A stretch of DNA of 64,000 bases from Candidatus Bathyarchaeota archaeon (lineage in GTDB: Archaea > Thermoproteota > Bathyarchaeia > Bathyarchaeales > Bathycorpusculaceae): contig CAVTZU010000013.1 in NCBI GenBank assembly GCA_963739305.1, forward strand, positions 32,001 to 96,000, given 5' to 3'. This document shows positions 16,001 through 61,375 of this stretch, piece after piece. The position numbers and the translations under genes are program-made. Positions within the stretch are counted from its first letter, which is position 1, and each line of letters opens with the position of its first letter. The notes beneath the pieces were generated by a model that worked only from the letters and a program-made list of their open reading frames with translations, made no database searches and was not told the origin of the DNA.

Positions 16001-16078
16001 TGGTGGGCCCGAAGGGATTCGAACCCTTGACCAACAGGTTATGAGCCTGGCGCTCTAACCTAGCTGAGCTACGGGCCC
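16001..16078 (-). tRNA. tRNA with CAT anticodon, most likely tRNA-Ile2
   Basis: GGGCCCG acceptor stem typical of archaeal Ile tRNAs, loop CTCATAA, encoded CCA; lacks the initiator A1:U72. Confidence 0.88.
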
Positions 16079-28489: not shown

Positions 28490-28578
28490 TGGCGCCGGGA
28501 GTGGGACTCGAACCCGCGCGGCCCCAAAGGGCCACTGGCTCTCAAGGCCAGCGCATTAATCCGCTCTGCCATCCCGGC
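28490..28578 (-). tRNA. tRNA-Ser(TGA)
   Basis: GCCGGGA/TCCCGGC stem, CTGGC-CTTGAGA-GCCAG anticodon arm, long variable arm, G73, CCA. Confidence 0.95.
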
Positions 28579-32938: not shown

Positions 32939-33015
32939 GGGCCGGTAGTCTAGCTCGGTAGGACATCTGCTTGACGTGCAGAAGGTCGCCGGTTCGAGTC
33001 CGGTCCGGCCCACCA
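32939..33015 (+). tRNA. tRNA-Val(GAC)
   Basis: GGGCCGG/CCGGCCC stem, TCTGC-TTGACGT-GCAGA arm, TTCGAGT, CCA. Confidence 0.95.
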
Positions 33016-37338: not shown

Positions 37339-37860
37339 ATGCCTGAAAAGAAAAAGGGAACCCTCGCGATTAAGAAGGCAAAGAAGACTGTGCTTGCCGT
37401 TAGGAAACCTCAGCCCATTGTAATTCAAAACTTCAACGATCTGCTAGACGCCTTTCGAGATGAGTTCGGGGGTTACTTGTGGGATCCCTATAGGGGATTC
37501 GAGTGGCCTGTCGAATATGAACTGCCGATGCGAATACCATACGTTGACGTTATCGACTCTGTCAACGAGTACGTCGTGAAAGCGGAGCTTCCAGGGTTGA
37601 AGAAGGAAAACGTGCAGATTGAATTGGCGCCGAACGAGTTGTCAATCACCGCTAGAGCTGGTGTGGAGACGGAGGAGAAGGGAAAAACCTATTTGCACAG
37701 GGAAAGGGCGTTCTCCACGTTCCGCAGACGCATCGGATTCGGAGATAGAATAGACATAGAAAAAGCGTCAGCAAATATAGCTGAAGGTATCCTTGAAATA
37801 AAGCTTCCCAAGCTCGAGCCCAAGCCTGAAAAGAAAACCAAAAAGATAACACCACAATAA
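37339..37860 (+). CDS. Small heat shock protein Hsp20/alpha-crystallin
   Basis: P.VDVID....YVVKAELPGLKKENV, RER..STFRR.I, GILEIKLPK. Confidence 0.93.
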   Translation: MPEKKKGTLAIKKAKKTVLAVRKPQPIVIQNFNDLLDAFRDEFGGYLWDPYRGFEWPVEYELPMRIPYVDVIDSVNEYVVKAELPGLKKENVQIELAPNELSITARAGVETEEKGKTYLHRERAFSTFRRRIGFGDRIDIEKASANIAEGILEIKLPKLEPKPEKKTKKITPQ

Positions 37861-38272
37861 ACCCTTTTTTCCATCTAGCTAGTTAACTGGAACGTTCAAA
37901 TAAGTAGCACTTGCTTTCTACATTATAGCGATCGGTCGATGCACGCGTGACTACTTCCATTTGTGGACTGTGATATCGAATTCTTGCCACATTGGATCAC
38001 CTTCTTGTGCCATTACTGTATTCAACATGTTCATCCATGCAAGCTTTTGAGACATGATCATGAAACTCCATTGACCTACCGCTTTACTTCTGTCTGCTTC
38101 AACTTCATCATGCCCAGAAGCCTTCAGGACCCCAGTTCTCCAGTGTTCGTTGTGAATATACCCTGACAGTCAGAACTATCCGCGCGCGACGGGCTGTGGT
38201 GAAGATTTATATCGGTGAGCACGTTTGCCTTATTTGTACTAGTAAAATTCTAACCTTGAATGGAGGGTTTGT

Positions 38273-39928
38273 ATGGCTTACTTGACAACAACTGCGACGG
38301 GACAACCAGTTTTGATTCTTAAGGAAGGTACGACCCGAAGCAGAGGAAAAGAAGCTCAGAGAAACAACATGCTGGCAGCTCGTGTGATTGGTGAAGTGTT
38401 GAAGACTACTTTGGGACCGCGCGGTATGGATAAGATGCTAGTTGACAGCTTGGGAGACATAACGATAACGAATGACGGTGCGGTAATACTGAACAAGATG
38501 GACGTTGAACATCCAGCGGCAAAGATGATGGTGGAAATCGCAAAGACACAGGACGACATGGTGGGCGATGGGACAACCACCGTTGTAGTGCTTGCAGCCG
38601 AACTGCTGAAAAAGGCTGAGGAGCTTCTAGAACAGAATATCCACCCGACAATAGTTGTGAGCGGCTATCGCAAAGCAGCGCAAAAGGCAGTTGACGTCAT
38701 AAACAACATCGCAATCCAAGTGGACATCGAAGACCGCGCAACACTCAAGAAAGTCGCGGTGACCTCAATGGCGAGCAAAGCGGTCGGCGCAGCAAAGGAA
38801 CATTTTGCAGACATCGCTATTGACGCTGTGAGACAGATAGCTGAAACGCGTGGAGACAAAATGCTGGCGGATATAGACAACATCCAAGTGATAAAGAAAA
38901 CTGGCAAAAGCCTCTTCGAATCCCAACTCGTCAAAGGCCTTGTGATAGACAAGGAAGTTGTTCACCCCGGAATGCCCAAAAAAGTCGAAAAAGCAAAAAT
39001 AGCCTTGCTCGACTGCGCTCTAGAAATCGAGAAAACGGAGATGAGCGCCGAAATAAGGATACACGACCCAGACCAGATGAAAGCGTTCTTGGAGCAAGAA
39101 AACAAGATGCTGCAGGACATGGTTGAGAAAATCAAAGCTTCGGGTGCAAACGTGGTTTTCTGCCAGAAAGGCATAGACGAAATGGCTCAACACTTCCTGG
39201 CAAAAGAGGGAATAATGGCTGCTAGAAGAGTGAAACAGTCAGACATGGAAAAGTTGGCAAGAGCGACAGGTGGAAGAATAACCTCAAATTTGGCCGATCT
39301 CAGCGCGAAAGACTTGGGTGCGGCAGGCATTGCCGAAGAGCGCAAGCTGGGCGAAGACAAAATGATCTTTGTCGAAAAATGCAAGGACCCACGCTCAGTT
39401 GCAATCATCATAAGAGCTGGACTCGAAAGAATGGTTGACGAGGCTGAAAGAGCGATGACTGACGCCTTGTCAGTTGTTTCCGACGTGATAGAGACTAACA
39501 AGATAGTTGCAGGCGGCGGTGCAGTGGAAGTCGAAATGGCTAAAGAATTACGAAACTACGCTACAAGCGTGGGCGGAAGAGAACAACTTGCAATAGAAAT
39601 GTTTGCTGACGCTGCTGAGGTAATACCTAAAACCTTGGCTGAAAACGCGGGACTGGAGCCCATTGACATAATCGTGGAATTGAGAGGTGCACATGCGAAA
39701 CCAGGGGGTCAATACAAGGGCGTGAATGTTTTCACAGGAAAGGTTGAAGACATGCGCAAAGAAGGCGTCGTCGAACCGATGATCGTGAAAGAACAAGCAG
39801 TGAAGTCAGCCACGGAATCCGCAGCAATGATACTCCGCATAGACGACGTGATAGCCTCAACCAAACCCAAAGAAGGACCTGGAGCAGGCAAACCACCTGG
39901 CGGCGGGATGCCAGAAAGCGAAGATTAG
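38273..39928 (+). CDS. ths: Thermosome (group II chaperonin) subunit
   Basis: [38 protein letters not shown]. Confidence 0.97.
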
Positions 39929-39941
39929 AAAGGTTTCCCAG

Positions 39942-39952
39942 TTTTCTTTTTT
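39942..39952 (+). terminator. Oligo-T terminator after thermosome gene
   Basis: TTTTCTTTTTT just after the stop. Confidence 0.55.
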
Positions 39953-40208
39953 CCAACTCTATTTTTGCATATCAAGAACTCAGTGTGATTGAATAGCGAT
40001 TCAGTCCACGCTACTAAGCACTTGCCTTTATTTCTCCTTTGAAAACTCGGTAGCACCTTTCTGAGCAGAAGCCTTGAAAATCATTATCTGGCATGAACAG
40101 TTTTCCACAAGTTTTGCACTTCTGTTTAGCCCTTTCCTGCATTCACTTCTTCCCCTAATCAGAATGTCATCTTGACTGGTTAAATGTTTAACCATAACGC
40201 GCGCTGAT

Positions 40209-40460
40209 TTAGTCGTCTTTGTATTCATCTTCAGCGAGTTCAACTGAAACGGTGTCCTTGTGTGTGGGGCGTTTCATCTTTTCTGGCGTCATCTCTCTTC
40301 CTTGCATGAACGCGTTTTCGGCGGCGGTAATGTCGTCTTCGTCCAGCATTTCTTCTCTCTGTTTGTGATCATAAATGTCCCCAGTTTCTTTCTCCTTCTC
40401 TTGTTCAGCGTGGTCAGTGTCGATGTGCTCAGTCTTCTTTCTTTTGCCTTGCGAATGCAG
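40209..40460 (-). CDS. Small acidic hypothetical protein (83 aa, CTG start; not in ORF track)
   Basis: Open frame ...GDIYDHKQREEMLDEDDITAAENAFMQG...ELAEDEYKDD*. Confidence 0.6.
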   Translation of the reverse strand: MHSQGKRKKTEHIDTDHAEQEKEKETGDIYDHKQREEMLDEDDITAAENAFMQGREMTPEKMKRPTHKDTVSVELAEDEYKDD

Positions 40461-40944
40461 TCACTCTAAGTAGTCAAACACGCATTGTGCAATATAAAGA
40501 GCGTGCGCAACAGGTCTATTTTGGAAAAGATGCTATTGAGAGTTGAAGAGGAATGTGAGAGAGCATGAGTAGTGAACAGAATCCACGCAAGAAACCAATA
40601 GAGAGTGTTCGTCGTGACAAAGCGAAAGGTCATCAAACGAGAAGAGCCCGTGGAGGAAAGAAACAGAAGAGAAGGTAAGATTCTAGACGTGACAACCAAA
40701 ACCTACGAGCGCGTGATAAGCATGCAGATCGAAAGTGTGCCAAAACACGCGCTTACACACTTAAGTTATTAATTCGATACCCTTATAAGTGAGTATGCTC
40801 ATAATATAGTATGAGGATAAGCAAACACGATTGATGTACAATGATCACGGAAAGGAGAGCGATAGTTGGCATATGGCAATTTGCTTATTGGAAGAATACC
40901 TAACACGTGCGAATCGTGCACAAAACTGATATTAGGTAATAGAA

Positions 40945-41088
40945 ATGGGAAGAATCAGCGTGGAACTATCGGATGAGCTTGAAAAGCAGCTCAGGTTCAA
41001 AACTATCGAGAAATTTGGCGGGAGAAAGGGCGACTTATCCAAGGCTGTCGAAGAAGCAGTAAAAACGTGGATTGCCAAAGAAGAATAA
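40945..41088 (+). CDS. Ribbon-helix-helix (CopG/Arc-like) protein, 47 aa (not in ORF track)
   Basis: MGRISVELSDELEKQLRFKTIEKFGGRKGDLSKAVEEAVKTWI. Confidence 0.8.
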   Translation: MGRISVELSDELEKQLRFKTIEKFGGRKGDLSKAVEEAVKTWIAKEE

Positions 41089-41229
41089 CCACGCTTATCC
41101 TTCATTTCCATTAACTTGATTTATAGTTAGCCTTAAGCGAAGAAGGCTCAGGGAAAACCAGCCCCCCAACACTTTCCAGAGAGATTTTTGCGAGGGGGAA
41201 CTAGAGCTGGATACCCTCTTCTGAGGGGG

Positions 41230-41241
41230 TTGCGCGCGCTA
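41230..41241. repeat. Recurrent CG palindrome copy TTGCGCGCGCTA
   Basis: 11/12 match to TAGCGCGCGCTA, intergenic. Confidence 0.7.
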
Positions 41242-41499
41242 AAATCTTGAAACCCAAGAAAGGTTCCATGTTGAAGCAAGAGTCACTCGAACGATCGATC
41301 GACTTCAAGGTTTGTGGGCACAAAATGAAGCCTAAATGATTTTGCAGTCTTCAACATGCTTGTTCGTACTCCTTCTCAGCTCCATAATAAAGCAGATTGG
41401 CCGCTTCTCTCGCAACTCTTTTTCTTGAACTGATAGAATCGACTGTCACGAATGCACCGAAAAACTCTGGGTTAAACGTCGGACCACCACGCGTCAAGC

Positions 41500-42750
41500 C
41501 TAGCGTTTGATGATCTGTTCATAAAGCCCCAGTGTTTTTTCAGCTATCTTATCCCACGTGAACTCGTTCAGGACTCTGCGTCTGCCGTTTTTGCCCAGCC
41601 ACTTTCTTTTCTCATCGTTTTCCAAGACGCTGTTTATGCCCCAAGCTATGTCTGATGGGTTGCTTGGATCTATGTGATAACCGCACTGTTCTTCGCCGTA
41701 ATACACGACTATCTCCCGCATACCGCTGATGCCAGCAGCACCGATGACAACTGGTCGCCCCATACTCATTGCCTCGAGAACCACTATTCCGAAGGGTTCA
41801 TAGAAGCTTGGGAAAACTGCGACATCGCAGGCTGCATAGTGAAGGATTCGTTCTTCCTCAGGTATGAATTCAAACCTGAGCTTCACGTAGTCACTCATTT
41901 TCGTAACCTTGACCAAATTCATCAGGTATTCCTGCAACTCGCCTAGACCCACAATCACAAGCTTCGCCTTTGGATTTTTCTCCAGAATGTGGGGCAATGC
42001 CATGATAAGCTTGTCAACGCCTTTGACACCAGCGAGTCTGCCTATGAAAAGAATCATGTACTCATCGTCTTTGATATCATACATCGCTCTCACTTTCTTG
42101 ATCTGCTCAGGAGTCACTTTTGCTGGATCATATTTCTTCGGGTCGACCCCGTTGTAGGCAACTTGGATTTTCTCTTTCGGAAATCCGAGGCCTACGAGCT
42201 CATCTTTCATTGCATAGGAAACTGTCACAATAAGGTCAGCTGCCTTGGCGCCGTGGAGTTCAATGTTGCTCACTGTAACTGAGCCTTTTCCAAACGTTCT
42301 TCCTTTCTCTGTTGAGTGAACATGGAACGCAAAAGGCAATCCTGCCTCTTTCTTGGCAGTCATTCCCCCTATAGCTGAAAGCCAGTCATGAGCAACGATA
42401 AGGTCGAACTTGGTGCCTTCTTTTCTTATCAACTCATTAACGAGTTTTGCAGCGCTAAGATAATTGTACACGAGGATTTTTGAGAACCACTGTATCCCAC
42501 TACCCCATTTCTTCAAGTCTTCTCCAACTACATCGGGCAACGAGTCAGAAATGTCAATGTGTTTGGGCCGATGAATTTCGATACCTCGCCAAATCTCACG
42601 CGTCGGTAGGCCACTTGCATCATCATTCATGGTGAAAACTGTAACGTCATTGTCCATGAGAACAAACTGGCGAGTTATTTCAGCCGAGTAGGTTCCCAAG
42701 CCACCGACGATCCTTGGGGGATATTCGCAGACCAGAACAGCAAGCTTCAT
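41500..42750 (-). CDS. Glycosyltransferase family 4 (glycogen synthase-like)
   Basis: EYPP.IVGGLG, AHDW, HSTE.GR, GRL..VKG, PSFYEPFGIVVLEAM. Confidence 0.92.
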   Translation of the reverse strand: MKLAVLVCEYPPRIVGGLGTYSAEITRQFVLMDNDVTVFTMNDDASGLPTREIWRGIEIHRPKHIDISDSLPDVVGEDLKKWGSGIQWFSKILVYNYLSAAKLVNELIRKEGTKFDLIVAHDWLSAIGGMTAKKEAGLPFAFHVHSTEKGRTFGKGSVTVSNIELHGAKAADLIVTVSYAMKDELVGLGFPKEKIQVAYNGVDPKKYDPAKVTPEQIKKVRAMYDIKDDEYMILFIGRLAGVKGVDKLIMALPHILEKNPKAKLVIVGLGELQEYLMNLVKVTKMSDYVKLRFEFIPEEERILHYAACDVAVFPSFYEPFGIVVLEAMSMGRPVVIGAAGISGMREIVVYYGEEQCGYHIDPSNPSDIAWGINSVLENDEKRKWLGKNGRRRVLNEFTWDKIAEKTLGLYEQIIKR

Positions 42751-42819
42751 TGGTTTTCATCGTTGCCCGTTTCTTAATAGTCTCTCGCTATAATTGCGCG
42801 TGTGTTTCTTAAGGTTCTC

Positions 42820-43107
42820 CTACTCTTTTGCAAGGGTTATTTCTATTGTTGAAACCATCCGTGTTCTGTTTTCGCCTTCTCTTGCTGGCATCTCCTCTGT
42901 TCCTATGGCGATTCTGCTTACTTTTAGGTCTTTTAGGAAGCGATTTCTGGTTATTTCAGCCACATCAACAGCTGTACTGATCGCTTGTCCTCTTGCTTTT
43001 AGAACTACTTCCTTAGCATTGCCAGCCGATAGCCTTGTCATAACTGCTAGAACATAGTCCATTGGTGTTTTACTTCCAATGAAAACAATTCCCGATTTTT
43101 CCGACAT
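42820..43107 (-). CDS. albA: DNA/RNA-binding protein Alba
   Basis: [41 protein letters not shown]. Confidence 0.95.
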
Positions 43108-43364
43108 TTCCATCAATCCTTTCATCATTAATTGTAGCGTGCAACGTTGTTGTGTTCTTCCGGTCTCTCAACAACAGAACGCTGTTGCACTCATACTACG
43201 CATACTTCCTTATAAAGCGAAAAGACAGCAGAGTAGCCTGAGGATATTTTCACAGCTCCCAAATCCTAGATTCCGGTCTTAGACGAAGCATTTCACTTCG
43301 CATTTAGGTGAAGGTTATAATTCTTGTTTGTTGTTACTATTTGGTTCTGGGAAGGAAGATTTAT

Positions 43365-44220: not shown

Positions 44221-45105
44221 ATGGAAAAACATGCGCGCGCATTGTTGTATCTATTTTGGCTTGAGCTAAAGAGAAGCATATTTGGAGTGAAGTATTTTGC
44301 AGAGGTTGATGTAACGGACAACTGTAATCTCAGATGCAAACATTGCTACCATTTTCACGGTAAAAACGAATTTAACAAACAAGAGCTTTCCACAGACGTA
44401 TGGGAACAAAGGTTCAAAGAACTGTACAAGTCCGGAATTAGACACATTCTTCTGGTTGGTGGGGAGCCTGCGCTCAGGATTGATGTTCTCATGCTTGCCG
44501 ACAGAATATTCCCTTTTGTCTATGTCATAACAAACGGAACAATAAAGATACCAGAAGAATTCAATCATAGGCTCTATGCTTCAATAGATGGGTCTCAAAA
44601 AATGAATGATTCACTCAGAGGAGACCGTGTTTTCTCAAAAGTGATGAAAAACTTTTCAGGGGATAAGCGTGTTGTTGTCAATATGACAATCACGAGTGAT
44701 AATTACAAAGAGCTTGAGGAAGTTATAGAAATTGCAAAAGAGAATGGTTTCAAGGGTGTCGTTTGTAACATATGCACAGGTGGAACGGACGTCACTGTTC
44801 CTCTGGTTGTGGGCGAAAAAGAGAGAAAAACTATAGTGAAAGAACTGAAACGAGTGAAGAAACTATACCCAAAAGATTTTCTTTTGACCAAAGCTATGAT
44901 AAAATGGTATGAATACCCCGACCATACTGGTCAATGCTTCTGGGGCGATGAAGTGTTACATTTCGACACTTCATGGAACAGAAGGAGGTGTTTTGGAAAC
45001 AATGCGGACTGCTCCAATTGTGGGTGTCTAGCGGGGACCTTTCAAAATCCTTTGAAAATGCTGAGGCATCCAAGAGAGATGATGAAAATAGGTATTTGTT
45101 CATAA
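44221..45105 (+). CDS. Radical SAM protein with C-terminal auxiliary Cys cluster
   Basis: CNLRCKHC, GGEP, TNG, SIDG; C-terminal C..C..CSNCGC. Confidence 0.9.
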   Translation: MEKHARALLYLFWLELKRSIFGVKYFAEVDVTDNCNLRCKHCYHFHGKNEFNKQELSTDVWEQRFKELYKSGIRHILLVGGEPALRIDVLMLADRIFPFVYVITNGTIKIPEEFNHRLYASIDGSQKMNDSLRGDRVFSKVMKNFSGDKRVVVNMTITSDNYKELEEVIEIAKENGFKGVVCNICTGGTDVTVPLVVGEKERKTIVKELKRVKKLYPKDFLLTKAMIKWYEYPDHTGQCFWGDEVLHFDTSWNRRRCFGNNADCSNCGCLAGTFQNPLKMLRHPREMMKIGICS

Positions 45106-47250: not shown

Positions 47251-49710
47251 TTATTCTGTCTCTAGCTGTTTGTTCACGCCAGGGAAAGGTCCCGTGACGT
47301 TCACCAATGTTTCCTCATCACGTTCTTCAGCCTTTGTTTTTAACGGGAGCGATATCACAAACTCAGATCCTCGTCCCGGCGTGCTTTTCACCGAAATCTT
47401 GCCGCCGTGGCCTTCTTCGATGAAGCGTTTGCATATCGGTAGGCCAAACCCCATTCCTTTCGCTTTTGTGGTAAACAACGGGGACCAAAGCTTGTTAAGC
47501 ACGTCGTTGGTCATACCAGTGCCCGTGTCGGAGAAGGAGATTTCGACGTTTTCACCTTTCAAACTGCTCCTTATTGTTAACGTGCCGCCTTCAGGCATCG
47601 CGTCCACGGCATTCTTAATCAGGTTAACGAAGACTCTTTTTAGCTTGTCAACGTCAACCCTCAATTTCGGTTCGCTTTCAGTCAGGTCCACGACCCGAAC
47701 GCTTCTTGGGACTTCTGCAGCCGCCAAGGATTCCTTCGTTATCACTTTCGGGTTAACGACGTTTAGTTCCAGCCTGATTTCTCTCGAGTATTCCAACAAG
47801 TCGTTAATGATCTTGTTCGAATGTTGAACTGCCTTTTCAACAGTGTCTAACATTTCATTAGCCTTGCCATCCAATCGTTGACCGTACTTCGTCTTCAGGT
47901 AGTACGATGCACCTGCAATGCCAGTCAACGGGTTACGCAGGTCGTGGCCAATCATCGCTGCCAACTCGCCAATTGCAGCCAACCTTTCCGCCTTCAGCAA
48001 GTTGCCCTGAGCTTCTTTTAGCTCTCGCGTTCGATCCGCAACCTTCAATTCAAGCTTGTTTGCGTAATCTTGCACCTGAACATTGGCATCGTGCAACTGA
48101 TAAATCAACTGGGCGTTTTCAATCGCTACCGCTGCCAGATGCAAGAAAAGTTCCAAGGGCGCCAGAGACTCCTTCGTGGGCCGTTTGCCGTCGAGCGGGT
48201 CGTCCACGCTCAACCGACCCACGATGCGTCCGTCTGCTAACCGAAGCGGGGCATACAACATGTCATTTGGGTTCCAATCAATCATATCTTCAGGCTTAAG
48301 ATGACTATCGACAATGCCATCAAGGCTTGTTTCCCTGACCCAAGGATCACTCCAAGGAAGATAGTAGAACTGACCTATTCTGAAGCGTTCATACTCAAGC
48401 CCGAACTGTTCTTGAACCACTCTACCTGGCGGCCTCTTATCCCACAGATGCGTTATCTCCTCGTCAGTTAACCCCACGGTCACCAAGTCATCTGGGCTTG
48501 CCATTTCCATGTTCTTGTCTCTAACAGAAATAACTACTCTGCGCCAACCTTGACTGTTGATAGCGTCAGCAATTGCATGCAGCCGTTCATGCACATCCAT
48601 AGAGCGTATCATTTCTGCTGCACTCTTCATAAGAGAAGCCTGCTGACCAATTCGTTTCCGAACCTCCTCATGAGCTTCCTTTCGCTCAGTGACATCCCGC
48701 AAGACAACGACGCGACAAGTCACATGACCACGCCAGTCGATGATAGGGGAAATACACACGTCAAAGGCTCGGATTTCATCTCCATTGCTTAGAACAAATT
48801 CCCGGCTTGTTGCAGTCGCCTCGACCTGATCTTCTTCCTGAACAGGGAAACCTTGAAATGCGTTATTTAAAAGACATCCGACAATCTGCGATCTGGAAAG
48901 GCTGGTCAATCTTTGCGCGGCAGGATTCAAATCAACGATGTGATTTGACCCGTCCAACACGATCAGAGCGTCAACCATGCTCTCCATGAGGCTTCCCCGC
49001 GCAACTGAAATTATGTCTCTAAGATGCAAACGAGTAGGATTGACTATTGCCAGTGCTGCGGTGGAAAGACAAGTAGCCAAAGCGGTCGGGTCAAATGCAA
49101 AATTCTTTGCAGAGGTCGAATCAAATATCAAGGCTATCATCCATGGAAAGGCCGCAGTCAATAACAGAGCAATTGCCTGACGATTATACGGACGGCGGGA
49201 GCGAATAAGCATCTCAACAGAAAAAAGAGAGGTGGCAAAGAGCACGGTATAGATGTATCCCAAGAAGAGAATGTATCCAGGAGCAAACGTCTCGTTTAAT
49301 GGGAAGAACGGGTTCAACGTGTTTAACGTGACTTGGCTGAAGAAAAGACCGGTCGCCTCGTTAGTCGCGACGAGAGCATAAAAAACAAGAGACACAACGC
49401 TTAGCAATGCGATGCTTCTACGAGTGACCCATTTCTCTCGATCGGTCTGCTGAAAAGCGTACACTGCCCACGCAACCGGGATGGTGACTATTCCAGTGTA
49501 CTTGACCTCTTCAAAAAAGAACTTCGTTGCGACATCGCTGCTTGCCGTATCCAATGCTTCACCTAACGTCCATATAATACCCGCCAAAACAAGCAAAGCA
49601 ATCGCCTTGGATCCCTTCCCCCCTCTACGCCAGACCCAAACATCAACAATTGATGAAAAAGCTGCTGCACCAATCAATAGGATCACGTGAGGAGCGAAAA
49701 CAAACGTCAA
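47251..49710 (-). CDS. Sensor histidine kinase (7TM N-terminus, PAS, GAF-like, HisKA, HATPase)
   Basis: GHDLRNPL, NLIKNAVDAM, DTGTGM, FTTKAKGMGFGL. Confidence 0.93.
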   Translation of the reverse strand: MTFVFAPHVILLIGAAAFSSIVDVWVWRRGGKGSKAIALLVLAGIIWTLGEALDTASSDVATKFFFEEVKYTGIVTIPVAWAVYAFQQTDREKWVTRRSIALLSVVSLVFYALVATNEATGLFFSQVTLNTLNPFFPLNETFAPGYILFLGYIYTVLFATSLFSVEMLIRSRRPYNRQAIALLLTAAFPWMIALIFDSTSAKNFAFDPTALATCLSTAALAIVNPTRLHLRDIISVARGSLMESMVDALIVLDGSNHIVDLNPAAQRLTSLSRSQIVGCLLNNAFQGFPVQEEDQVEATATSREFVLSNGDEIRAFDVCISPIIDWRGHVTCRVVVLRDVTERKEAHEEVRKRIGQQASLMKSAAEMIRSMDVHERLHAIADAINSQGWRRVVISVRDKNMEMASPDDLVTVGLTDEEITHLWDKRPPGRVVQEQFGLEYERFRIGQFYYLPWSDPWVRETSLDGIVDSHLKPEDMIDWNPNDMLYAPLRLADGRIVGRLSVDDPLDGKRPTKESLAPLELFLHLAAVAIENAQLIYQLHDANVQVQDYANKLELKVADRTRELKEAQGNLLKAERLAAIGELAAMIGHDLRNPLTGIAGASYYLKTKYGQRLDGKANEMLDTVEKAVQHSNKIINDLLEYSREIRLELNVVNPKVITKESLAAAEVPRSVRVVDLTESEPKLRVDVDKLKRVFVNLIKNAVDAMPEGGTLTIRSSLKGENVEISFSDTGTGMTNDVLNKLWSPLFTTKAKGMGFGLPICKRFIEEGHGGKISVKSTPGRGSEFVISLPLKTKAEERDEETLVNVTGPFPGVNKQLETE

Positions 49711-50062: not shown

Positions 50063-50476
50063 CTACGTGGTTGATTCATAAGCGAGGCGACACAATCTGT
50101 CCGCTTCTTCGTTTTCTTCGCGAGGAACCCATCTAAAATCAATATCCAACCCCTTTATCAACTCCTTGGCTTTCGCATGCAAAGGCACTATCCGCGTGCC
50201 CTTCACCTTCCATTCGCCTCTCATCTGGCTCACAAGAAGCTTCGAATCAGACCGAAAGACTGCTTTCTCTTTATCTAACCCCAATTTTCTGACCGCCTGT
50301 AGGGCGTGAATGAGGGCAGAGTACTCGGCAACATTGTTCGTCATTTCTTTGCTCGTATCTAAAACGTCAGCGCCTTTTTCAACTACCTTACCATTTTTCT
50401 TTATCAAGTATGCAGCGCAACCGGTTCCTCCGGGGTTGATGGGCTCGCATAGACCGTCTGTCCAAACCTCTATCAT
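50063..50476 (-). CDS. rnhA: Ribonuclease HI
   Basis: WTDG...NPG, TNNVAEY.AL, SDSKLLVSQM.G.W, WVPREENEEAD.L. Confidence 0.93.
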   Translation of the reverse strand: MIEVWTDGLCEPINPGGTGCAAYLIKKNGKVVEKGADVLDTSKEMTNNVAEYSALIHALQAVRKLGLDKEKAVFRSDSKLLVSQMRGEWKVKGTRIVPLHAKAKELIKGLDIDFRWVPREENEEADRLCRLAYESTT

Positions 50477-54249: not shown

Positions 54250-56817
54250 GTGGAAAATGATTTGAAGCTTCCGATTTTCAAAGAACCTCTATTTGTCGGA
54301 AGAGAACCAGAGCTTCAGCAACTGCAACAGTTGCTCGATTCCTCACGTGCAGGAAAAGGAGCTACGGTCTTTGTCTTCGGCGAAGCAGGAGCTGGAAAAA
54401 GCAGACTCGTCAAGGAATTTCTGAAGACCGTCAGAGAGAAGGAAATCACCGTGGTGAAGGGATTCTGCATGAGCAAGACTCCTGTCCCGTATTTTCCGTT
54501 CATAGAAGCTTTCAATGCCCTCTCCTCGTCTGACCATGACCAAGACATCAGCAAGAGCGCGAAGGAACACTTGGGAATAATGGGATGGCTAAAGGGAAAT
54601 GAAATGGTAGCAGCTGAATCCATTGGGATAGCAGGATGGCTAAAAGGTCCAAAACATGATAAGACGACAAGAGAACAGCCGACACTGAGCGCTGAAATCA
54701 GGAAGGACATGACCTACGCGGCTGTGGCAAGAGCCCTGCATTCAATTTCTACAGATAAACCCTTGATTCTGTTCATAGATGACATTCATTGGGCTGACTC
54801 GGCCTCTCTGGCTTTGCTTCACTACATATCACGCACCATTGCCTCGTCGAAAGTTCTCATCGTAGTCACTGTGCGGCTTGAAGAAGCAAGTCAGGATGCC
54901 GACGGTCGTCCTCAACCTTTGGCTGAAACTCTGCAATTGATGCGGCGTGAAGACCTATTTGTCGAAATCAAAGTCCCCAGTCTGGACAAACCTGAAGTCG
55001 TGAAGTTAGCTGAACTGATGGTCAATGGACCGATTGAGGAAGAATTTGTTGAAAAACTTTCAAAAGACAGCCAGGGAAACCCACTTTTCGCAGTTGAATC
55101 TGTGAGGATGCTGATTGAATCTGGAAGTTTGGTCTGCAAGGATGGGACATGGTGTCTTACTACAAAGGAACTGAGCATACCGACAAAAGTGAAAGACGTC
55201 ATACTTTATCGGCTCAACCGACTGACAGCGATTCAGAGAAGAATGCTTGATCTGGGATCGGTAATCGGAGAAAGATTTGACCCTGCACTACTTGGGGCGG
55301 TTCTCTCTCAAGATAGGCTAGTCGTCTTAGAGACTTTGAACATGATCGCGCACTCAACTCTTCTAATTTATCCAATTGAGAATGTGTACAAGTTTGGCCA
55401 CGGGAAGTTTCGAGATGTGCTTTACGACGAAATATCTCATCCTTTGCGACGAGAATACCACGAAAGAATCGCAGAGAAAATCGAGAGTCTCACAAAGGAA
55501 ACCACAGAACTGCCAGTCAATGACTTGGCATTTCATTATGTTCAAGCAGGAAACAACGAAAAAGCAATTCAATATAGCATCGTTGCGGGTGAAGATGCCC
55601 TGAAAAGGTTCAGCAATACGGAAGCCATCAAGGCTTTCAATTATGTCCTGAAAACCACGTCAGAAAATCCAAGATACTCGGCAGAGAGGCTCGTCGCTTC
55701 GGAAGGCTTGGGCGATGCCTTCTCGGCTGAGGGCGCATTCGAGGAAGCGGCAAAAACGTTTGAGCATTTAGGCCGTATCGCGGAGTCGGGTGGAATAAGG
55801 CTTCGCGCACTCAGGAAGGCTATGACTGCATCTTTCAACAGGGGAGATTTCCTCCATGCATTAGAATTGGCGGATAAGACTGAGAAAGACTCTGCTTTTG
55901 ACAAGCTGGAGTACGCAAGGGTTCAAGTGTATAGGACAAAAACGAATAATTTCAGGGGTAACCTTCCCTTCGTTAAGGCTTTAAATGAATTGGAGAATTG
56001 TCTACAGATTTTCGAGGAGAAGAACTCCAGTCCTGACGTGGCCGATGCCTTGCTAGAAATTGGGACTCTTTACGTGACGGACTCACAAGGAGCAGAGGCT
56101 GTGCCTTTTCTCCAACGTGCTATCGATCTGTACGAGAGATTGGGAAACTCCCGAAAGCAGACTGAGGCATATTTTTGGGCTGGAAATGCGCAATTCACGC
56201 ATGGTTCTCATCAGGAGGCTCTTGACAATTGGGAAAAAACCATCAAGATTGGGGAGAAGATAGGCGACTACAACAGGATGGCATGGGCCAGACTGTATTC
56301 CGGCCTTTTGCACGAATCTATGGGAGAGCTTAAAGAAGCGCTCGAAGACTCCCTGAAAGGGATCGAATATGCTGAGAAAACAGATTCATACTATGTGCGG
56401 AGCATGATATATGCAAACATCGCTAGAGATTGCGCGAAACTCGGGGATTCCAAACGTCTAGAGGAATTCAGGGAGAAATTCACCAAATCATTTGTTGATG
56501 CGGGTAAGACGTCAAGCAAACTGGCAAGAGCCGTAGGTGTTCGCACGGAGGCTGTCCTGTTCGCGGTAGATGGTCATTGGGACGAAGCGAATAACCATTT
56601 TGAACACTGCCTTGAATTGTTTAAAGGAGCGGCAGCTGCCATTGTTCATGAAGCAATGGCCAGGGCTGATTATGCTTGGGCGCTTAGAAAGCAGGGAAGA
56701 ATTGTTGACGCAAGAAGGCAGATTGAAGAGACCAAGAAGTTGTATGAAAAGGTCGGAAGTAGATCTAATGTGGAGAGAATGGAGACAATGCTGGTCGAAA
56801 TCAAGGAGCCTTCATGA
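54250..56817 (+). CDS. STAND-type AAA ATPase with C-terminal TPR repeats
   Basis: FVGRE.EL, GEAGAGKS, LFIDDIHWAD, GNPLF, YKF.H, LAFHY, then TPR-like helices. Confidence 0.92.
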   Translation: MENDLKLPIFKEPLFVGREPELQQLQQLLDSSRAGKGATVFVFGEAGAGKSRLVKEFLKTVREKEITVVKGFCMSKTPVPYFPFIEAFNALSSSDHDQDISKSAKEHLGIMGWLKGNEMVAAESIGIAGWLKGPKHDKTTREQPTLSAEIRKDMTYAAVARALHSISTDKPLILFIDDIHWADSASLALLHYISRTIASSKVLIVVTVRLEEASQDADGRPQPLAETLQLMRREDLFVEIKVPSLDKPEVVKLAELMVNGPIEEEFVEKLSKDSQGNPLFAVESVRMLIESGSLVCKDGTWCLTTKELSIPTKVKDVILYRLNRLTAIQRRMLDLGSVIGERFDPALLGAVLSQDRLVVLETLNMIAHSTLLIYPIENVYKFGHGKFRDVLYDEISHPLRREYHERIAEKIESLTKETTELPVNDLAFHYVQAGNNEKAIQYSIVAGEDALKRFSNTEAIKAFNYVLKTTSENPRYSAERLVASEGLGDAFSAEGAFEEAAKTFEHLGRIAESGGIRLRALRKAMTASFNRGDFLHALELADKTEKDSAFDKLEYARVQVYRTKTNNFRGNLPFVKALNELENCLQIFEEKNSSPDVADALLEIGTLYVTDSQGAEAVPFLQRAIDLYERLGNSRKQTEAYFWAGNAQFTHGSHQEALDNWEKTIKIGEKIGDYNRMAWARLYSGLLHESMGELKEALEDSLKGIEYAEKTDSYYVRSMIYANIARDCAKLGDSKRLEEFREKFTKSFVDAGKTSSKLARAVGVRTEAVLFAVDGHWDEANNHFEHCLELFKGAAAAIVHEAMARADYAWALRKQGRIVDARRQIEETKKLYEKVGSRSNVERMETMLVEIKEPS

Positions 56818-56912: not shown

Positions 56913-57116
56913 CTATTCGGTCAGTACGAGCGGTCCCAGCTTGAGAACTATCGAGCCGTCCACCTCAAGGAAACACAACGTATCACCAGGTCGCAACCCA
57001 AACTTCTTCCTGACCTCAGTGGGCACTGTTATCTGGCCTCGCGCCGTCATTTTTGATTGCCCCCTCAAAATTGCCTCAACGGAAGCGTGTTCTTCATTTC
57101 TTGTTTCTCGACTCAA
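56913..57116 (-). CDS. AbrB/MazE/SpoVT family DNA-binding protein
   Basis: SKMTARGQITVPTEVRKKFGLRPGDTL.F. Confidence 0.9.
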   Translation of the reverse strand: MSRETRNEEHASVEAILRGQSKMTARGQITVPTEVRKKFGLRPGDTLCFLEVDGSIVLKLGPLVLTE

Positions 57117-57269
57117 GGTTACTCAGCACTCTCCAGTCACTTTTGGAATGTTATTGCAAGTAAATCAATAAAAGACTTACTGTGTTGTATTATCATGCGT
57201 TTCTTACAATTTTTTAAGAACAGATTAGAATGTATAGTAATGACGAGGAAAAGTCGGGGGGTGAGGAAA

Positions 57270-57590
57270 ATGGAAAAGAAACCTGACGAAAAAGAACCAG
57301 TTAAGGTGAAGGAGAAGGCCAAGCTGTATCCGAAGCTTATGACGCCGGTAAGAGCCGCGATTGCACCTAGTCTCGCCAAGTCTGCTGCCCGAACAAGTGC
57401 TCGTACTAGTGCGCGAACAAGCGCACGAACAAGTGCCCGAACAAGTGCTCGCACAAACGCACGCACCAATGCTAGAACAAATGCTCGCACGAACGCGCGA
57501 ACGAACGCACGAACGAACGCTCGTACCAATGCGCGGACGAACGCCCGAACAAATGCTCGCACAAACGCGCGGACAATGACGCAGGCGTAA
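57270..57590 (+). CDS. Repeat-containing putative precursor peptide (38-aa leader + AART, 5x SART, 10x NART + MTQA)
   Basis: GGGGGTGA upstream of ATG 57270; 12-nt units vary almost only at synonymous sites; directly upstream of an RRE-protease. Confidence 0.85.
   Translation: MEKKPDEKEPVKVKEKAKLYPKLMTPVRAAIAPSLAKSAARTSARTSARTSARTSARTSARTNARTNARTNARTNARTNARTNARTNARTNARTNARTNARTMTQA
57384..57575 (+). repeat. 16 x 12-nt imperfect coding tandem repeat
   Basis: Units (AGY/AAY)-GCN-(CGN/AGA)-ACN, first unit starting GCT. Confidence 0.95.
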
Positions 57591-57591
57591 A

Positions 57592-57613
57592 TGTCGTGAG
57601 CGCTCTCGCGACA
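57592..57613 (+). promoter_or_regulatory. Stem-loop right after the precursor gene (attenuator or stabiliser)
   Basis: TGTCGTGAG-CGCT-CTCGCGACA, 9-bp stem with one G-U; T-rich tract at about 57647-57664. Confidence 0.55.
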
Positions 57614-57688
57614 AATCGTTGCGTGGAGATAAACAACTTCACTAGTATTTTCTTTGTTTGTTTTCATTCAGAATAGAGAGGGGGGCGC

Positions 57689-60517
57689 ATGAGTACTGAC
57701 GTTGCGAGTAAGACAGACGTAATGTACGAAATCCTGTACAATCCCACAGAGTTCATTCCATTGCCTTCATCGCGGGTTAATGTAAAGACAACGATTGTTG
57801 ATAACAAACCCTCCTATTTGATGAAGAATCATGCAACTGGAACATACTACGATCTCGATGAGCTAACAGACTTGATCTGGAGTCTGACAGACGGCAAAAG
57901 AACAGTCAGTCAAATCGTCAAGGATGTTCAGGCTCAGAAACCGAAGGTGCAGGAAAAAACTGTTTTTGAAAACCTATTGTTTTTTGCTGATTCAAATCTT
58001 CTGGAGGAAAAATCTGAAGAGAAACCAAAGACGAGATTCAGAGTAGTGTCCTCCTTTGAAATGGCAATTACGTTGATTCGAAATAGCCACGGTTTCATCC
58101 ACTCTCTTCATTCACGCATACATCTGATTTTCAGGAGATGGTTACTTTGGGTCACGATCGGATTTATCATTGCGGCTGCAGTGTTGTTTGCTCGTGAATT
58201 TGTGTCGATCTATGGACAAAAAGCGAATTTCGAAATCATGGGGTCATCGGTTGTGGGCTTCTTCTTCTATTATTTTGTGCCTCTAGCTCCTGTGATTGCA
58301 ATTCATGAAATTGCCCATGCAATAACTCTTGTGCATTTCGGTGGTCAGGCTGGTGAGATGGGAACTGGCTTGTTTTACTTCAGTCCAATGTTCTATACGG
58401 ATACCACGGACGCCTGGGGGCTAACGAGAGGTCAGAGAATGCAGGTCTACCTAGCCGGAAACATTTCCACCTTGCTCATCGGAGCCGCTCTTGTTTTTGT
58501 TCATCTCTTTGTTCAGATTCCCGGGTTTGCCTCTCAAATCGTTCTCATGGTGTCTTTTTACTGTTTTTCAATGTCACTCATGAACTTTGCCCCTCCCTTC
58601 GAGACTGACGGTTATTACATACTCTCGGACGCCGTCAAGATGCCGAACCTTCGATATGACTCGTATGGCTATTTGGGCTCGGTTGTCAGACGTTTTTTCA
58701 GAAGACCTGTAAAGAAAGAAACTTCAGGGCTAACCAAAAGAAAAAAGCAGATCTTTTTATTATATGGACTTGTATCTGTGGCCTGGATCATATACATCAT
58801 TTTTCAAACGTCACTCTTCCTCGTCTATATGGGTCAAGACGTGACTGTTGCTCTCAGAAACATTGGTGGGGCAATCGTATCTTCCCAAGCGATACCGATA
58901 GCGGCAGTTGTGATTGCAACACTTTCTACCCTTTATTTCGGAATGCAACTCACAGGATACACGTTCGCTTTTTCGAGCGCGGTGAAAAAAGCCATGGCAA
59001 GACCTCTCACTCTTGAAGCCATCCATGATCGAGACTTAACTGTATTTGAGTATCTTCCTCCTGGCGTTCCAGAATTCCTCTGCAACCGTCTGAAGTCAAG
59101 AATGGAAAAGATCTCGAGGAAATTTACACCGAAGTTTGAGGTTAAACTTGTCGGACGGTCCTGCTTGGCTACATTGAGAATGGGCGGTACAAATTTGGCC
59201 TTAGTCCAAATCAAAGAGCATCTGAAACGGATTGAAAAAGAGTTTAACTCGGCGTATGAGAAACTTATACTAAGTCATAAGGACACGATTCAAAGATCGG
59301 TAGGTGTCCACTCCCCACAAAAGATTGGATTCACAAACGCTTTCAAACAATTTGCGACTGAATCATCAGAAGCGGGAAATTCCACTGCGTTCAACATTGC
59401 TCGAGCTTGTGAAAAAACTCAAGAAGAGACTCTCTTGTATCTTCTGCAATCGGCTTGTGGCACGGTTTGGAACATCGAAGTTCCGCCCTCCCAAGAATAC
59501 GAGTTTCAGAAAGAGTTGGCACCATCTTTACTTCTTGAAGACATGACTTTAACTGACCTTTACCACGACACTGAGAACTTCAAAAAACGCGTCATCTACG
59601 GTTTGGATTCGCTTATGGTTTTGGCAGTCGACACCGAAACTGCAATGAAGGAAGGACTTGCCAAACCGGATGAGTATCAATGTCTGAGTGTGTTAGAACC
59701 CATAAAGAGCCGAATCATTTTCGTAGGTCGAACTGACCCGATTGCCTACAAGTCAGAGGCATTCGCACCTATCTTTCTTACGTACACATGGACCGGCTAC
59801 ACGGACAATCTTTTGTGCGAGACCTGTCTGAAACTCGCAACAATCAAGCGAGCTCGTCTGCCTGATTCCAAAGAGATAGAAGAGTTAAGCATCGGCGAAT
59901 TAGCCGTTCTGTCGAAGGATCTCATGCTTTTCGATCAAACCAGGGATCTGGTTGATAGGCGAATTAAAAAGACTATGGAACAATTTGCCAAAATGAATCA
60001 AAGTCTTGCTGAAATGCAGCATACGGCAGAATCAGTGCAAATTTTCAAAATCGGAATGTTGGAAGCAGCTTTGCGTGTGAACACCGAGAATTTGACCTCT
60101 ATCCCCGGCAGGATTAGATGTTTCCAGAAAGATTGGAGTATAATGTGCAAGAGAATTGGGAAAGTGCAAGACCACGTTCAAAAGGCATACGATGAGACGA
60201 AGCCAGGCATCGAAAAGAGAAAACGCCATTTGCTGATGTTTTCTCCCTTCATCGTCATGGCGTCTGTTTTGCTCCTTGTTTTGGGCTTCAAACAAATGCC
60301 AACATCATGGTCGATTATATTATTCTCACTTTCGGCTGCGGTGCAGGTTGCCTATTGGACATTTTCCTATCGAGCGTGGAACTCAGCTCGCAAAGTTTCG
60401 AAGTATTCGGCCGAGGCTTTCAACTCAGTTCACACTGTTCTTCTAGCTCTGACAGAAGCCGTTTTCGGTTACGTGACGACCGAAGACGCTTTGACTCTGG
60501 ACGAGACATCAGTCTGA
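57689..60517 (+). CDS. PqqD/RRE-like domain + M50 (YydH-like) membrane zinc metalloprotease + large unknown C-terminal region
   Basis: YLMKNHATGTYYDLDELTDLIWSLTDGKRTVSQIV (PqqD-like); IHEIAHA, P.FYTDTTDAW, LAG, NFAPPFETDGYYILSD..KMPNL (M50). Confidence 0.88.
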   Translation: MSTDVASKTDVMYEILYNPTEFIPLPSSRVNVKTTIVDNKPSYLMKNHATGTYYDLDELTDLIWSLTDGKRTVSQIVKDVQAQKPKVQEKTVFENLLFFADSNLLEEKSEEKPKTRFRVVSSFEMAITLIRNSHGFIHSLHSRIHLIFRRWLLWVTIGFIIAAAVLFAREFVSIYGQKANFEIMGSSVVGFFFYYFVPLAPVIAIHEIAHAITLVHFGGQAGEMGTGLFYFSPMFYTDTTDAWGLTRGQRMQVYLAGNISTLLIGAALVFVHLFVQIPGFASQIVLMVSFYCFSMSLMNFAPPFETDGYYILSDAVKMPNLRYDSYGYLGSVVRRFFRRPVKKETSGLTKRKKQIFLLYGLVSVAWIIYIIFQTSLFLVYMGQDVTVALRNIGGAIVSSQAIPIAAVVIATLSTLYFGMQLTGYTFAFSSAVKKAMARPLTLEAIHDRDLTVFEYLPPGVPEFLCNRLKSRMEKISRKFTPKFEVKLVGRSCLATLRMGGTNLALVQIKEHLKRIEKEFNSAYEKLILSHKDTIQRSVGVHSPQKIGFTNAFKQFATESSEAGNSTAFNIARACEKTQEETLLYLLQSACGTVWNIEVPPSQEYEFQKELAPSLLLEDMTLTDLYHDTENFKKRVIYGLDSLMVLAVDTETAMKEGLAKPDEYQCLSVLEPIKSRIIFVGRTDPIAYKSEAFAPIFLTYTWTGYTDNLLCETCLKLATIKRARLPDSKEIEELSIGELAVLSKDLMLFDQTRDLVDRRIKKTMEQFAKMNQSLAEMQHTAESVQIFKIGMLEAALRVNTENLTSIPGRIRCFQKDWSIMCKRIGKVQDHVQKAYDETKPGIEKRKRHLLMFSPFIVMASVLLLVLGFKQMPTSWSIILFSLSAAVQVAYWTFSYRAWNSARKVSKYSAEAFNSVHTVLLALTEAVFGYVTTEDALTLDETSV

Positions 60518-60592: not shown

Positions 60593-61375
60593 TTGATTCA
60601 GATGCCATTATCTGACCACAAGAGATTTTCAAAAACAACACGCAACTCTTCGGACACTCGTGAAGGATCCCTAAAAGAAGCGTTGTCCGAGCCTCGGAAA
60701 CCTGTCGGGGTTGATCGCGTGACAGATCTCATGAATTGTATGGATATTTCAAAGAAGGTTTATCATTCTTCAATTCTGCCCAAGAAACTTTCCAGTAGCA
60801 ATTCAGCCAAGACAAGAGTAGTTGGGGGAATTTCTAGAAATCTTGGTTCACATTCGTTCTCGGATAAACGATTGAAGCCCCGAGACTTCAACCTATGCAG
60901 AATCCCGAAAAAAAGCTCGAGTCTGCTGAGTAAAAGTGTTAATAGCTCTAGTTTTCTGATGGGAATTTTTACGCGAGAGGGACCCACATCAAAGTTTCCA
61001 TCAGCCTTTGTTGACAAGAACAAACTAGTAATGCACAAGCTGAATCGACCTCTTTCTCGAAAAGAAGTCAATTCAAATAATCAAAAACTCGGGCACTTTT
61101 CAAATGCTACTGCACTTCGATTGTTTGAAGCTTTGTCAAAGGAGCCAATGGAGTTTCTTCGTCTTCACACAAGTTTTGGAGTTTCAAAGCGGACCGTGAG
61201 GGGGTTCGTCAGAAATGGATGGTTAACAGAGACGTGGGGACGAGGAGGCGTGGGTATTCGGTTCAGACTTTCAGAGAAGGGAAGGAACTATCTAAAAAGC
61301 CTTGAGGAATATTCAAAGTACGAAACAAAACCGAATCTGCGAAACTTCATTCGTCTAAAAAATAGAGCCTTCTGA
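60593..61375 (+). CDS. Hypothetical basic protein with C-terminal winged-helix-like domain
   Basis: S/K-rich N-half; LFEALSKEPMEF..L...FGVSKRTV..FVRNGWL.E......FRLSEKG..YL. Confidence 0.65.
   Translation: MIQMPLSDHKRFSKTTRNSSDTREGSLKEALSEPRKPVGVDRVTDLMNCMDISKKVYHSSILPKKLSSSNSAKTRVVGGISRNLGSHSFSDKRLKPRDFNLCRIPKKSSSLLSKSVNSSSFLMGIFTREGPTSKFPSAFVDKNKLVMHKLNRPLSRKEVNSNNQKLGHFSNATALRLFEALSKEPMEFLRLHTSFGVSKRTVRGFVRNGWLTETWGRGGVGIRFRLSEKGRNYLKSLEEYSKYETKPNLRNFIRLKNRAF

Follow-up and report, generated by a model that had tools for sequence, protein, structure and literature searches.

The window analyzed here, 64,000 nucleotides of a Candidatus Bathyarchaeota contig (CAVTZU010000013.1), carries an open reading frame (ORF) of 106 amino acids (57270-57590, +) in which a short leader is followed by 16 tandem four-residue units. 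Its codons show the array to be a peptide repeat that is translated, old, and kept by purifying selection, and a slippage microsatellite is excluded. Directly downstream lies the gene for a 942-aa protein (57689-60517) that joins a domain like the recognition element (RRE) of ribosomally synthesized and posttranslationally modified peptides (RiPPs) to a site-2-type intramembrane metalloprotease. These two genes recur, together with the genes for an AbrB-type regulator and a winged helix-turn-helix (wHTH) protein designated p260, as a cassette in metagenome-assembled genomes (MAGs) and metagenome contigs of Bathyarchaeia. Coding constraint on the array, the domain identities and intact active site of the protease, and the conserved linkage of the genes carry this result. 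With moderate confidence, we regard the 106-aa product as a RiPP-like precursor, in which the RRE would bind the leader and the protease would remove it, releasing a polycationic repeat peptide. The first-pass annotation of this stretch had described the repeat; it missed the leader, the adjacent RRE-protease, and the conserved cassette, which are the main result.

Coding constraint on the repeat and its leader

The array opens with the codons GCT-GCC-CGA-ACA (AART) and is followed by MTQA and a stop. Residues 2 to 4 are invariant over all 16 units, and the codons that specify them are thoroughly mixed. Ala is encoded by GCT (6 units), GCG (4), GCC (3), and GCA (3), Arg by CGA (7), CGC (4), CGT (2), CGG (2), and AGA (1), and Thr by ACA (9), ACG (4), ACC (2), and ACT (1). 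At unit position 1, Ser is written solely as AGT or AGC, and Asn as AAC or AAT. All four third-codon columns vary across the units, and three first- or second-position columns do, two of them at unit position 1 and the other through a synonymous CGA/AGA change. Compared with the consensus unit, there are 33 synonymous and 7 nonsynonymous nucleotide differences, where 11 of the 36 possible single changes would be synonymous. A conservative count of the minimum number of events, 12 synonymous and 2 nonsynonymous, gives a binomial P value of 3e-5, and the pooled proportions of synonymous (pS) and nonsynonymous (pN) differences over all unit pairs are 0.77 and 0.085.

Codon identity between units matches what is expected from a random draw on the codon usage of the 64-kb window (observed versus expected, 0.24/0.26 for Ala, 0.22/0.23 for Arg, and 0.33/0.25 for Thr), and synonymous sites are saturated. 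At the DNA level, 13 of the 15 S/N-type units are distinct. A trace of the common descent of the units survives in the Arg codons, which are CGN in 14 of these 15 units compared with 45% of the Arg codons in the window genes. A periodicity score calculated over the 64-kb window found no other locus at threshold. Direct reading reproduced exactly what the first-pass annotation had said of units, codons, and a single switch from Ser to Asn. The count of synonymous against nonsynonymous differences that it had proposed also bears out two of its inferences. That the array is not a slippage microsatellite follows from variation tied to codon position, from the distinctness of the units, and from codon identity at the random level, and its view of an old peptide repeat under purifying selection is supported by saturated synonymous sites, by invariant residues 2 to 4, and by a leader conserved in relatives.

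We place the start of the gene at ATG 57270 because it is homologous to an MEKK start that, in relatives, immediately follows a stop codon. A longer ORF of 177 aa from TTG 57057 was rejected as the gene, since it overlaps the AbrB-type gene (56913-57116) and the homologous start is at 57270. A Shine-Dalgarno-like GGTGAGG (57260-57266) stands 3 bases upstream of the ATG, and the intergenic region that the peptide gene shares with the AbrB-type gene (57117-57269) is a presumed promoter/operator. In an alignment of 27 leaders (A3), P21 is invariant and K22 is present in at least 90%, with the consensus EK.AKIYPKL.TP.RA and the family motif [YF]PKL; more distant clades have different conserved leaders. 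The repeats set in 1 to 15 residues past PKL across the family, and in three loci (L050, L041, and L033) they do so after 1 to 5 residues, the leader ending where the repeats begin. At the junction of the transition segment and the array in the window, SLAKSAART aligns with the SMAKSAAKT of a 12-residue unit in L004/L019.

Two frames are also open on the opposite strand (57137-57667 and 57225-57614, both -), encoding VRAF/VRAL and other units, and such frames occur in most related loci; they are open because a repeat without stop codons is open in several frames. In the frame 57137-57667, the variable sites would alter amino acids. The synonymous pattern in the forward frame, together with the conserved leader, indicates that the 106-aa ORF is the coding one. 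Searches of Pfam and NCBIfam with this peptide gave no meaningful match, and a homologous-protein search gave 11 matches, of which the 7 inspected were unrelated low-complexity sequences of ART/ARTH type without the leader. The best ESM Atlas score with the peptide was 0.76, under the useful level. The peptide and protease genes are each present in a single copy in the window's own genome.

The RRE-protease and the cassette around it

The profile that best describes the 942-aa protein is NCBIfam NF041824 (daptide_HExxH, "daptide biosynthesis intramembrane metalloprotease"), which covers protein residues 42 to 411 and profile positions 17 to 371 of 379, with an E value of 1.9e-44 and 152.3 bits against a cutoff of 300. 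NF058609 (YydH/LiaK) matches weakly (aa 158-317, E value 1.3e-9, 38 bits, cutoff 225), and there are additional weaker matches to several PqqD-type RRE families; PF05402 is the precomputed annotation on many homologues. The sequence HEIAH occupies aa 206-210 (58304-58318), and a motif NFAPPFETDG holds D307 (58607-58609). Across 74 family sequences, H206, E207, H210, P302, D307, and G308 are invariant, so that the active site is intact, and the mean column identity of the protease core is 62%. An AlphaFold2 (AF2) model of residues 1 to 428 has a predicted local distance difference test score (pLDDT) of 86.2. Foldseek searches with this model returned the leader-bound lasso peptide RRE of TbiB1 (5v1u/5v1v) as the best match (probability 1.00, target TM 0.71, 27 to 29% identity), and PqqD (5sxy) and another lasso B1 protein (6jx3) were also matched. 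The protease domain of the model matched SpoIVFB (8vjm/8vjl, probability 1.00) and MjS2P (3b4r, probability 0.96). Complex prediction pairing the leader with the RRE domain gave a score of 0.01, which speaks neither for nor against binding.

Between the protease core and a C-terminal pair of transmembrane helices lies a soluble domain (aa 425-850) that is specific to the family. Its AF2 model has a pLDDT of 84.7. Pfam gave no match to it, and no convincing relative was found in the PDB (best Foldseek E value 0.04; VIA Z of at most 7.8, from helical hairpins only). A profile search through 1.84 billion representative sequences recovered 48 clusters, all of this protease family; the full-length matches place the domain at about residues 420 to 850 of proteins of about 890 to 970 residues, and the remaining matches are fragments. 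By the positive-inside rule, both the RRE and this domain are probably cytoplasmic. The possibility that this domain, being acidic, binds the cationic core was rejected, as its mean net charge is +7.3 in the family (+5 in the window's copy). Among its invariant residues are E516, E597, D618, K632, K633, G680-R681-T682, and D706. A second structural alignment of the alpha/beta modules gave Z scores of 5 to 6 to palm domains of ferredoxin-like fold, those of class III cyclases, GGDEF, and Cmr2, and of at most 6.0 to designed ferredoxin folds. These similarities are too weak to use, and that to palm domains is no more than a tentative lead to a possible enzymatic or nucleotide-binding role.

The distribution of the cassette was followed in 95 related loci, from which 11 duplicates and one locus with a masked stretch (L018) were removed to leave 83 unique loci. 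By tblastn, the AbrB-type gene is found in 60 of the 95 loci, at 67 to 91% identity, and in 42 of 46 unique loci it is divergent from the peptide gene and less than 600 nt from its 5' end. The gene for p260 is found by tblastn in 80 of the 95 loci and lies upstream of, and divergent from, the protease gene in 67 of 69 unique loci. The Pfam winged-helix matches of p260 are weak; its homologue at L006 matches HVO_A0261_N at an E value of 1.3e-7 along with HTH_11/HTH_5. In 56 loci the 3' end of the protease gene is complete and followed by 300 nt or more of sequence; L096 brings the assessable number to 57. Of the 56, 53 have a strongly periodic small ORF past that 3' end, on the opposite strand. 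In L004 and L020 the peptide gene is instead upstream and on the same strand as the protease, as it is in the window and in L097. Overall, 55 of the 57 assessable loci have a repeat ORF. The order in the window clade is AbrB-type (-) and then peptide, protease, and p260 (all +); a p260 gene downstream of the protease gene and codirectional with it is confined to the window, L004/L019, and L020. An inversion of just the protease gene in the common layout would fit this arrangement.

Counting the window's own genome, the protease occurs in 5 of 61 related genomes. In a collection of species-representative genomes it was found at 11 loci, all in Candidatus Bathyarchaeia/Bathyarchaeota MAGs, and metagenomes gave 133 matches, of which 80 were kept. 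A set of 5.8 billion proteins yielded 156 at an E value of 1e-5; those that carry a name are labeled M50 or DUF3267 peptidase, "putative peptide zinc metalloprotease," or hypothetical. Viral contigs contained no relative of the protease, and PADLOC, whose profiles cover known antiphage defense systems, matched none of the protease, the AbrB-type protein, p260, or the STAND protein described below, its sole match being a low-complexity one to the peptide.

Table 1. Coordinates of the cassette features in the window
Feature	Position	Strand	Details
AbrB/SpoVT-type DNA-binding protein, 67 aa	56913..57116	-	Pfam MazE_antitoxin/AbrB-type E 1.3e-8; divergent from peptide gene
Intergenic region	57117..57269		Common to AbrB-type and peptide genes; read from sequence
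Leader	57270..57338	+	aa 1-23, MEKKPDEKEPVKVKEKAKLYPKL; YPKL at aa 20-23 (57327-57338); Lys/Glu-rich
Transition segment	57339..57383	+	aa 24-38, MTPVRAAIAPSLAKS; degenerate x-A-K-S-like units
Repeat array	57384..57575	+	16 in-frame 12-nt units: AART x1, SART x5, NART x10
C-terminal tail MTQA and TAA stop	57576..57590	+	
PqqD-like RRE	57689..58018	+	About aa 1-110; Pfam PqqD E 2e-4, 22.1 bits (cutoff 23.4)
Site-2-type intramembrane metalloprotease core	58076..58963	+	About aa 130-425; NF041824 match, Foldseek, hydropathy scan
Family-specific soluble domain	58961..60238	+	aa 425-850 (about 430 aa); ferredoxin-like alpha/beta modules and long helical hairpins
C-terminal part	60230..60517	+	Two transmembrane helices (about aa 848-895) and tail; hydropathy; conserved in alignment A1
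p260	60602..61375	+	Ser/Lys-rich low-complexity N-terminal part, C-terminal winged helix; Pfam HVO_A0261_N E 0.009

The other neighbors in the window are rarely shared: an NmrA-like gene is present in 3 of the 95 loci, DHDPS in none, and the STAND-TPR gene in 5. The last of these encodes an 855-aa STAND protein with AAA_16 and TPR domains directly upstream of the cassette (54250-56817, +), with an NCBIfam match over a TOMM kinase/cyclase-like region (E value 1.7e-59) that is far below cutoff. Being present in only 5 of 95 loci, it probably does not belong to the cassette, and a role as the receptor of the cassette was rejected. No family of modifying enzymes was found among the linked genes, either next to the cassette in the window or conserved across loci, and neither Pfam nor fold searches recognized an enzyme fold in aa 425-850. 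A membrane protein of about 96 aa (65 to 81% identity, with weak MARVEL/DUF2721 similarity) flanks the cassette in 29 of 96 sequences, for example at L005:282-542; in the window's genome, its counterpart is unlinked to the cassette, on another contig (G000:C36:20372-20641, L099; 80% identity). Genes for a radical-SAM protein (44221-45105, +), a 7TM-PAS histidine kinase (47251-49710, -), and an RNase H-like protein (50063-50476, -) lie 7 to 13 kb upstream of the cassette. Farther away are a housekeeping context (37339-43128) with Hsp20, a thermosome subunit, a GT4 glycosyltransferase, and Alba, and tRNA genes at 9385-9457, 16004-16078, 28493-28578, and 32939-33012.

Repeat units across the family

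The related loci yielded 53 unique, correctly framed arrays, and these contain 43 different consensus units with periods of 4 to 12 residues. A period of 4 is the most frequent (25 arrays), followed by 6 (10 arrays), 8 (5 arrays), 12 (4 arrays), and 5 (3 arrays); 7 and 9 are present as well, and 10 is seen as its multiples 20 and 30. The periods of 5, 7, and 9 rule out the idea that unit lengths are always even. The units are as diverse as ARAP/AKAP, ARSP, ARPQ, GRAT, STRA, MKPT, AATRA, AKERIA, PRGELK, LARLDTKT, and MRLTPNQLAA. Lys or Arg is present in 52 of the 53, the mean net charge is +0.22 per residue, and the arrays are 17 to 161 residues long. Synonymous scrambling like that in the window is seen in most arrays, in which 45 to 70% of codon pairs differ synonymously and 0 to 15% differ in the amino acid. 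In L051, where PARS is repeated 19 times, the figures are 72% and 0%. Young arrays with nearly identical DNA units also exist (L004/L019, L010/L043, L069, and L093), and copy number can vary beside the same protease, as with MKPT, which is present 10 times in L010 and 7 times in L043.

The comparison of unit number and sequence with relatives, another proposal of the first-pass annotation, thus showed that both unit and copy number vary and that uniformity is kept at the protein level. The same annotation had held that frame-breaking changes in relatives would count against its view. For the most part the relatives' arrays are open and in frame; two breaks came to light, without a screen of every array, and each of them has an intact sibling. 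One is a 2-nt insertion at the end of the array in L010 (6789-7121; sibling L043:5529-5723), and the other is a 22-nt unit within a 118-nt extra segment in L052 (2981-3488; sibling L053:5303-5692). Both may be assembly errors or young pseudogenes. Assemblies tend to break inside these arrays: such breaks fall at position 1 of L004, L008, and L019 and at the contig ends of L023, L028, L074, L086, and L092, and L009 has an N run at 3800-3900. Because of such breaks and N runs, public gene calls would under-report these peptides, and copy numbers taken from MAGs are unreliable.

In the window, the single Ser-to-Asn switch along the array has a chance probability of 2/3003 (6.7e-4). At synonymous sites, units of the same block (Ser or Asn) have a similarity of 0.42 and units of different blocks one of 0.45 (permutation p = 0.77). 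As similarity is no higher within than between, the blocks are old; two recent expansions, one of each type, are ruled out by the same figures. The nearest relatives also vary at unit position 1, with VAKS/RAKS in L097 and AAKT-RALS-MAKS in L004/L019, and they share with the window the pattern x-A-(K/R)-(S/T), in which the first position is free. Blockwise variants of a unit occur elsewhere in the family too, from ARPK to ARPQ (L033), from PQIR to PQAR (L050), and from AKAP to TKAP (L029). Selection retains the residues of every unit in the window, and thereby also the Ser of the first five S/N-type units and the Asn of the ten that follow. Since the unit is swapped between lineages and yet each array is uniform, the selected property appears to be a regular, basic polymer of small residues.

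Proposed leader removal, competing readings, and known systems

The favored model is one of leader removal, by analogy with MpaP of the daptide clusters and with the YxxPxL leaders of lasso peptides. The conserved 23-residue leader ending in YPKL would be the handle, to be bound by the cytoplasmic PqqD-like RRE of the 942-aa protein, and the HExxH site-2-type domain of the same protein would then cut shortly past PKL. The product released would be an x-A-R-T peptide of about 80 residues, with a net charge of about +18 and no acidic residue, possibly passed across the membrane. Expression would probably be controlled by the AbrB-type protein, which shares the promoter region of the peptide gene, and by p260. 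For the mature peptide, antimicrobial, signal, and polyanion-binding roles are all candidates.

Several points weigh against this model. Binding, cleavage, transcription, and the peptide itself are all deduced from sequence. The protease scores 152 bits where the equivalog cutoff is 300, and the PqqD match falls just below its Pfam cutoff; the family is related to the known RiPP leader peptidases but does not belong to them. The substrates of classical site-2 proteases are helices embedded in the membrane, and the peptide has no hydrophobic segment. The leader-peptidase model does not appear to account for a role of the large aa 425-850 domain, and with a mean charge of +7.3, simple electrostatic binding of the cationic core by that domain is not supported. 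The peptide and protease genes converge at most loci and are therefore not cotranscribed there. Finally, L066 and L096 (2.6 kb flank) have no repeat ORF despite ample flanking sequence.

Other readings of the array have to be set beside it. A noncoding DNA repeat, whether a microsatellite, an array of regulator sites, or an assembly artefact, with a spurious ORF across it, would fit the 12-nt array reported by Tandem Repeats Finder (75 to 79% matches), the openness of both strands over the repeat, and the breaks in relatives' assemblies, where the contig stops within the array in L004/L019 and an N run interrupts L009. This reading retains next to no probability and is effectively refuted by variation that is synonymous in a single frame (P = 3e-5), by the conserved leader, start codon, and Shine-Dalgarno-like site, and by the repetition of the coding signature in dozens of arrays with unrelated DNA units. 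A stronger case can be made for a basic, disordered protein that stays in the cytoplasm and binds nucleic acid or another polyanion in the manner of a histone tail or protamine, with the protease either degrading it on cue by way of the leader or being functionally unrelated to it. The charge of about +0.22 per residue, the low complexity, and the lack of a hydrophobic or signal segment are what one would look for in such a protein. The remaining fixed members of the cassette are two DNA-binding proteins (AbrB-type and wHTH), and a cytoplasmic location is predicted for both the RRE and the 430-aa domain. We nevertheless consider it unlikely, since a conserved leader with a Pro motif ahead of the repeats, next to an RRE-fused homologue of leader peptidases, is a RiPP layout, and since generic polyanion binding does not need identical units within arrays while lineages differ freely.

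The first-pass annotation had suggested that the two blocks may give two products or two modification patterns. In a multicore precursor of this kind, a cut at each unit would free about five Ser-type and ten Asn-type tetrapeptides, which might serve, for example, as a receptor-sensed signal. The perfect conservation of every unit fits a product made in many copies, and with Lys or Arg in 52 of 53 arrays a trypsin-like enzyme could free pieces of unit length. The 43 units in 53 arrays represent fast turnover between lineages, which is typical of peptides used in signaling or competition. However, the units abut without spacers or recognition sequences, in the window as in the family arrays, and the arrays range from 17 to 161 residues. 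The protease core is conserved (62% mean column identity) while the units range from 4 to 12 residues, and it is hard to picture a single active site cutting all of them at their boundaries. In addition, the candidate receptor, the STAND-TPR protein, stands outside the cassette (5 of 95 loci), and a linked modifying enzyme was not found at the locus. Release of separate units is, in our estimate, quite improbable.

Leader-guided maturation invites comparison with known systems, and daptides come closest. According to the daptide preprint (10.1101/2023.03.08.531785), the leader is bound and removed by MpaP, an intramembrane site-2 protease with an RRE fused to its N terminus, in clusters that also encode DapB (DUF-RRE), an oxidative decarboxylase, an aminotransferase, and a methyltransferase. 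The window protein resembles DapP/MpaP in its N-terminal RRE, its site-2-type HExxH protease, and an adjoining small ORF whose leader is conserved and whose core varies; it differs in its extra 430-aa domain, in two more transmembrane helices, and in its archaeal host. The precursors differ as well, being tandem repeats here with a leader motif [YF]PKL instead of ELExMEAP. They also lack the invariant Thr at the C terminus; MTQA closes the window peptide, and the last residue in relatives is P, T, Q, A, K, R, or another. No DapB-, DapC-, DapD-, or DapM-type gene was found in the locus by Pfam scans of the flanking genes, the rest of the genome lying outside that search. A daptide identity is thus ruled out by the lack of a C-terminal Thr, the leader motif, the absence of Dap genes in the locus, and a score of 152.3 bits, below 300.

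The epipeptide proteases YydH/LiaK are alike in being membrane HExxH proteases dedicated to a small ribosomal peptide, although the match is weak, and they depend on a radical-SAM epimerase, which is not linked to the cassette. The window holds a single radical-SAM gene, 12 kb off and outside the set of genes for which related loci were compared. In lasso peptide systems, leaders have a YxxPxL motif recognized by RRE-type B1 proteins, as an excerpt of one report states (PMC10368454). This motif resembles [YF]PKL, and leader-bound TbiB1 is the best structural match of the N-terminal domain, but the motif spacing differs, no B2 protease or cyclase is linked, and a long repeat takes the place of the 15- to 25-residue lasso core. 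Many identical short units in tandem in one protease-processed ORF are familiar from other precursors, namely the cyanobactin precursor PatE, the antifreeze glycoprotein polyproteins of fish, and tetrad-repeat Pro/Arg-rich antimicrobial peptides, which ARPQ and ARAP resemble. Unlike those, the arrays described here have no spacers, units down to four residues, and a single N-terminal leader, and they are archaeal and linked to a membrane protease; in contrast to multicore precursors like those of cyanobactins, the cores are not flanked by protease recognition sequences.

A leader peptide of RiPP type served by an RRE-dependent leader peptidase is a known layout, and what sets this one apart is an unusual class of substrate and a protease domain confined to this family. 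The literature searched contained no description of such peptides or of the cassette, the supplementary RRE-peptidase lists of the daptide paper being outside its scope, and no ribosomal natural product from Bathyarchaeia; the word "archaea" is absent from the 2025 daptide preprint. We know of few ribosomal natural products from archaea, and Bathyarchaeia are very abundant in anoxic sediments and peat. The RRE-fused intramembrane protease, hitherto tied to bacterial daptides, is extended by these loci to archaea and to a very different kind of substrate. The arrays are also a clean natural example of selection on peptide repeats, with dozens of independent cases that are uniform in protein, synonymously scrambled, and built from different units. 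Moreover, the locus is a compact, testable cassette of four genes, for a peptide, a protease that is probably dedicated to it, and two regulators. Tentatively, we propose that the cassette represents an undescribed class of ribosomal peptides specific to Bathyarchaeia, in which leader-guided, protease-matured, polycationic tandem repeats would evolve under diversifying pressure and the 430-aa domain would be a new module for handling or modifying them. If so, the mature polymer would carry the Ser and Asn blocks as features tied to position, and the turnover of units would point to diversifying pressure such as acts on molecules of competition, kin recognition, or signaling.

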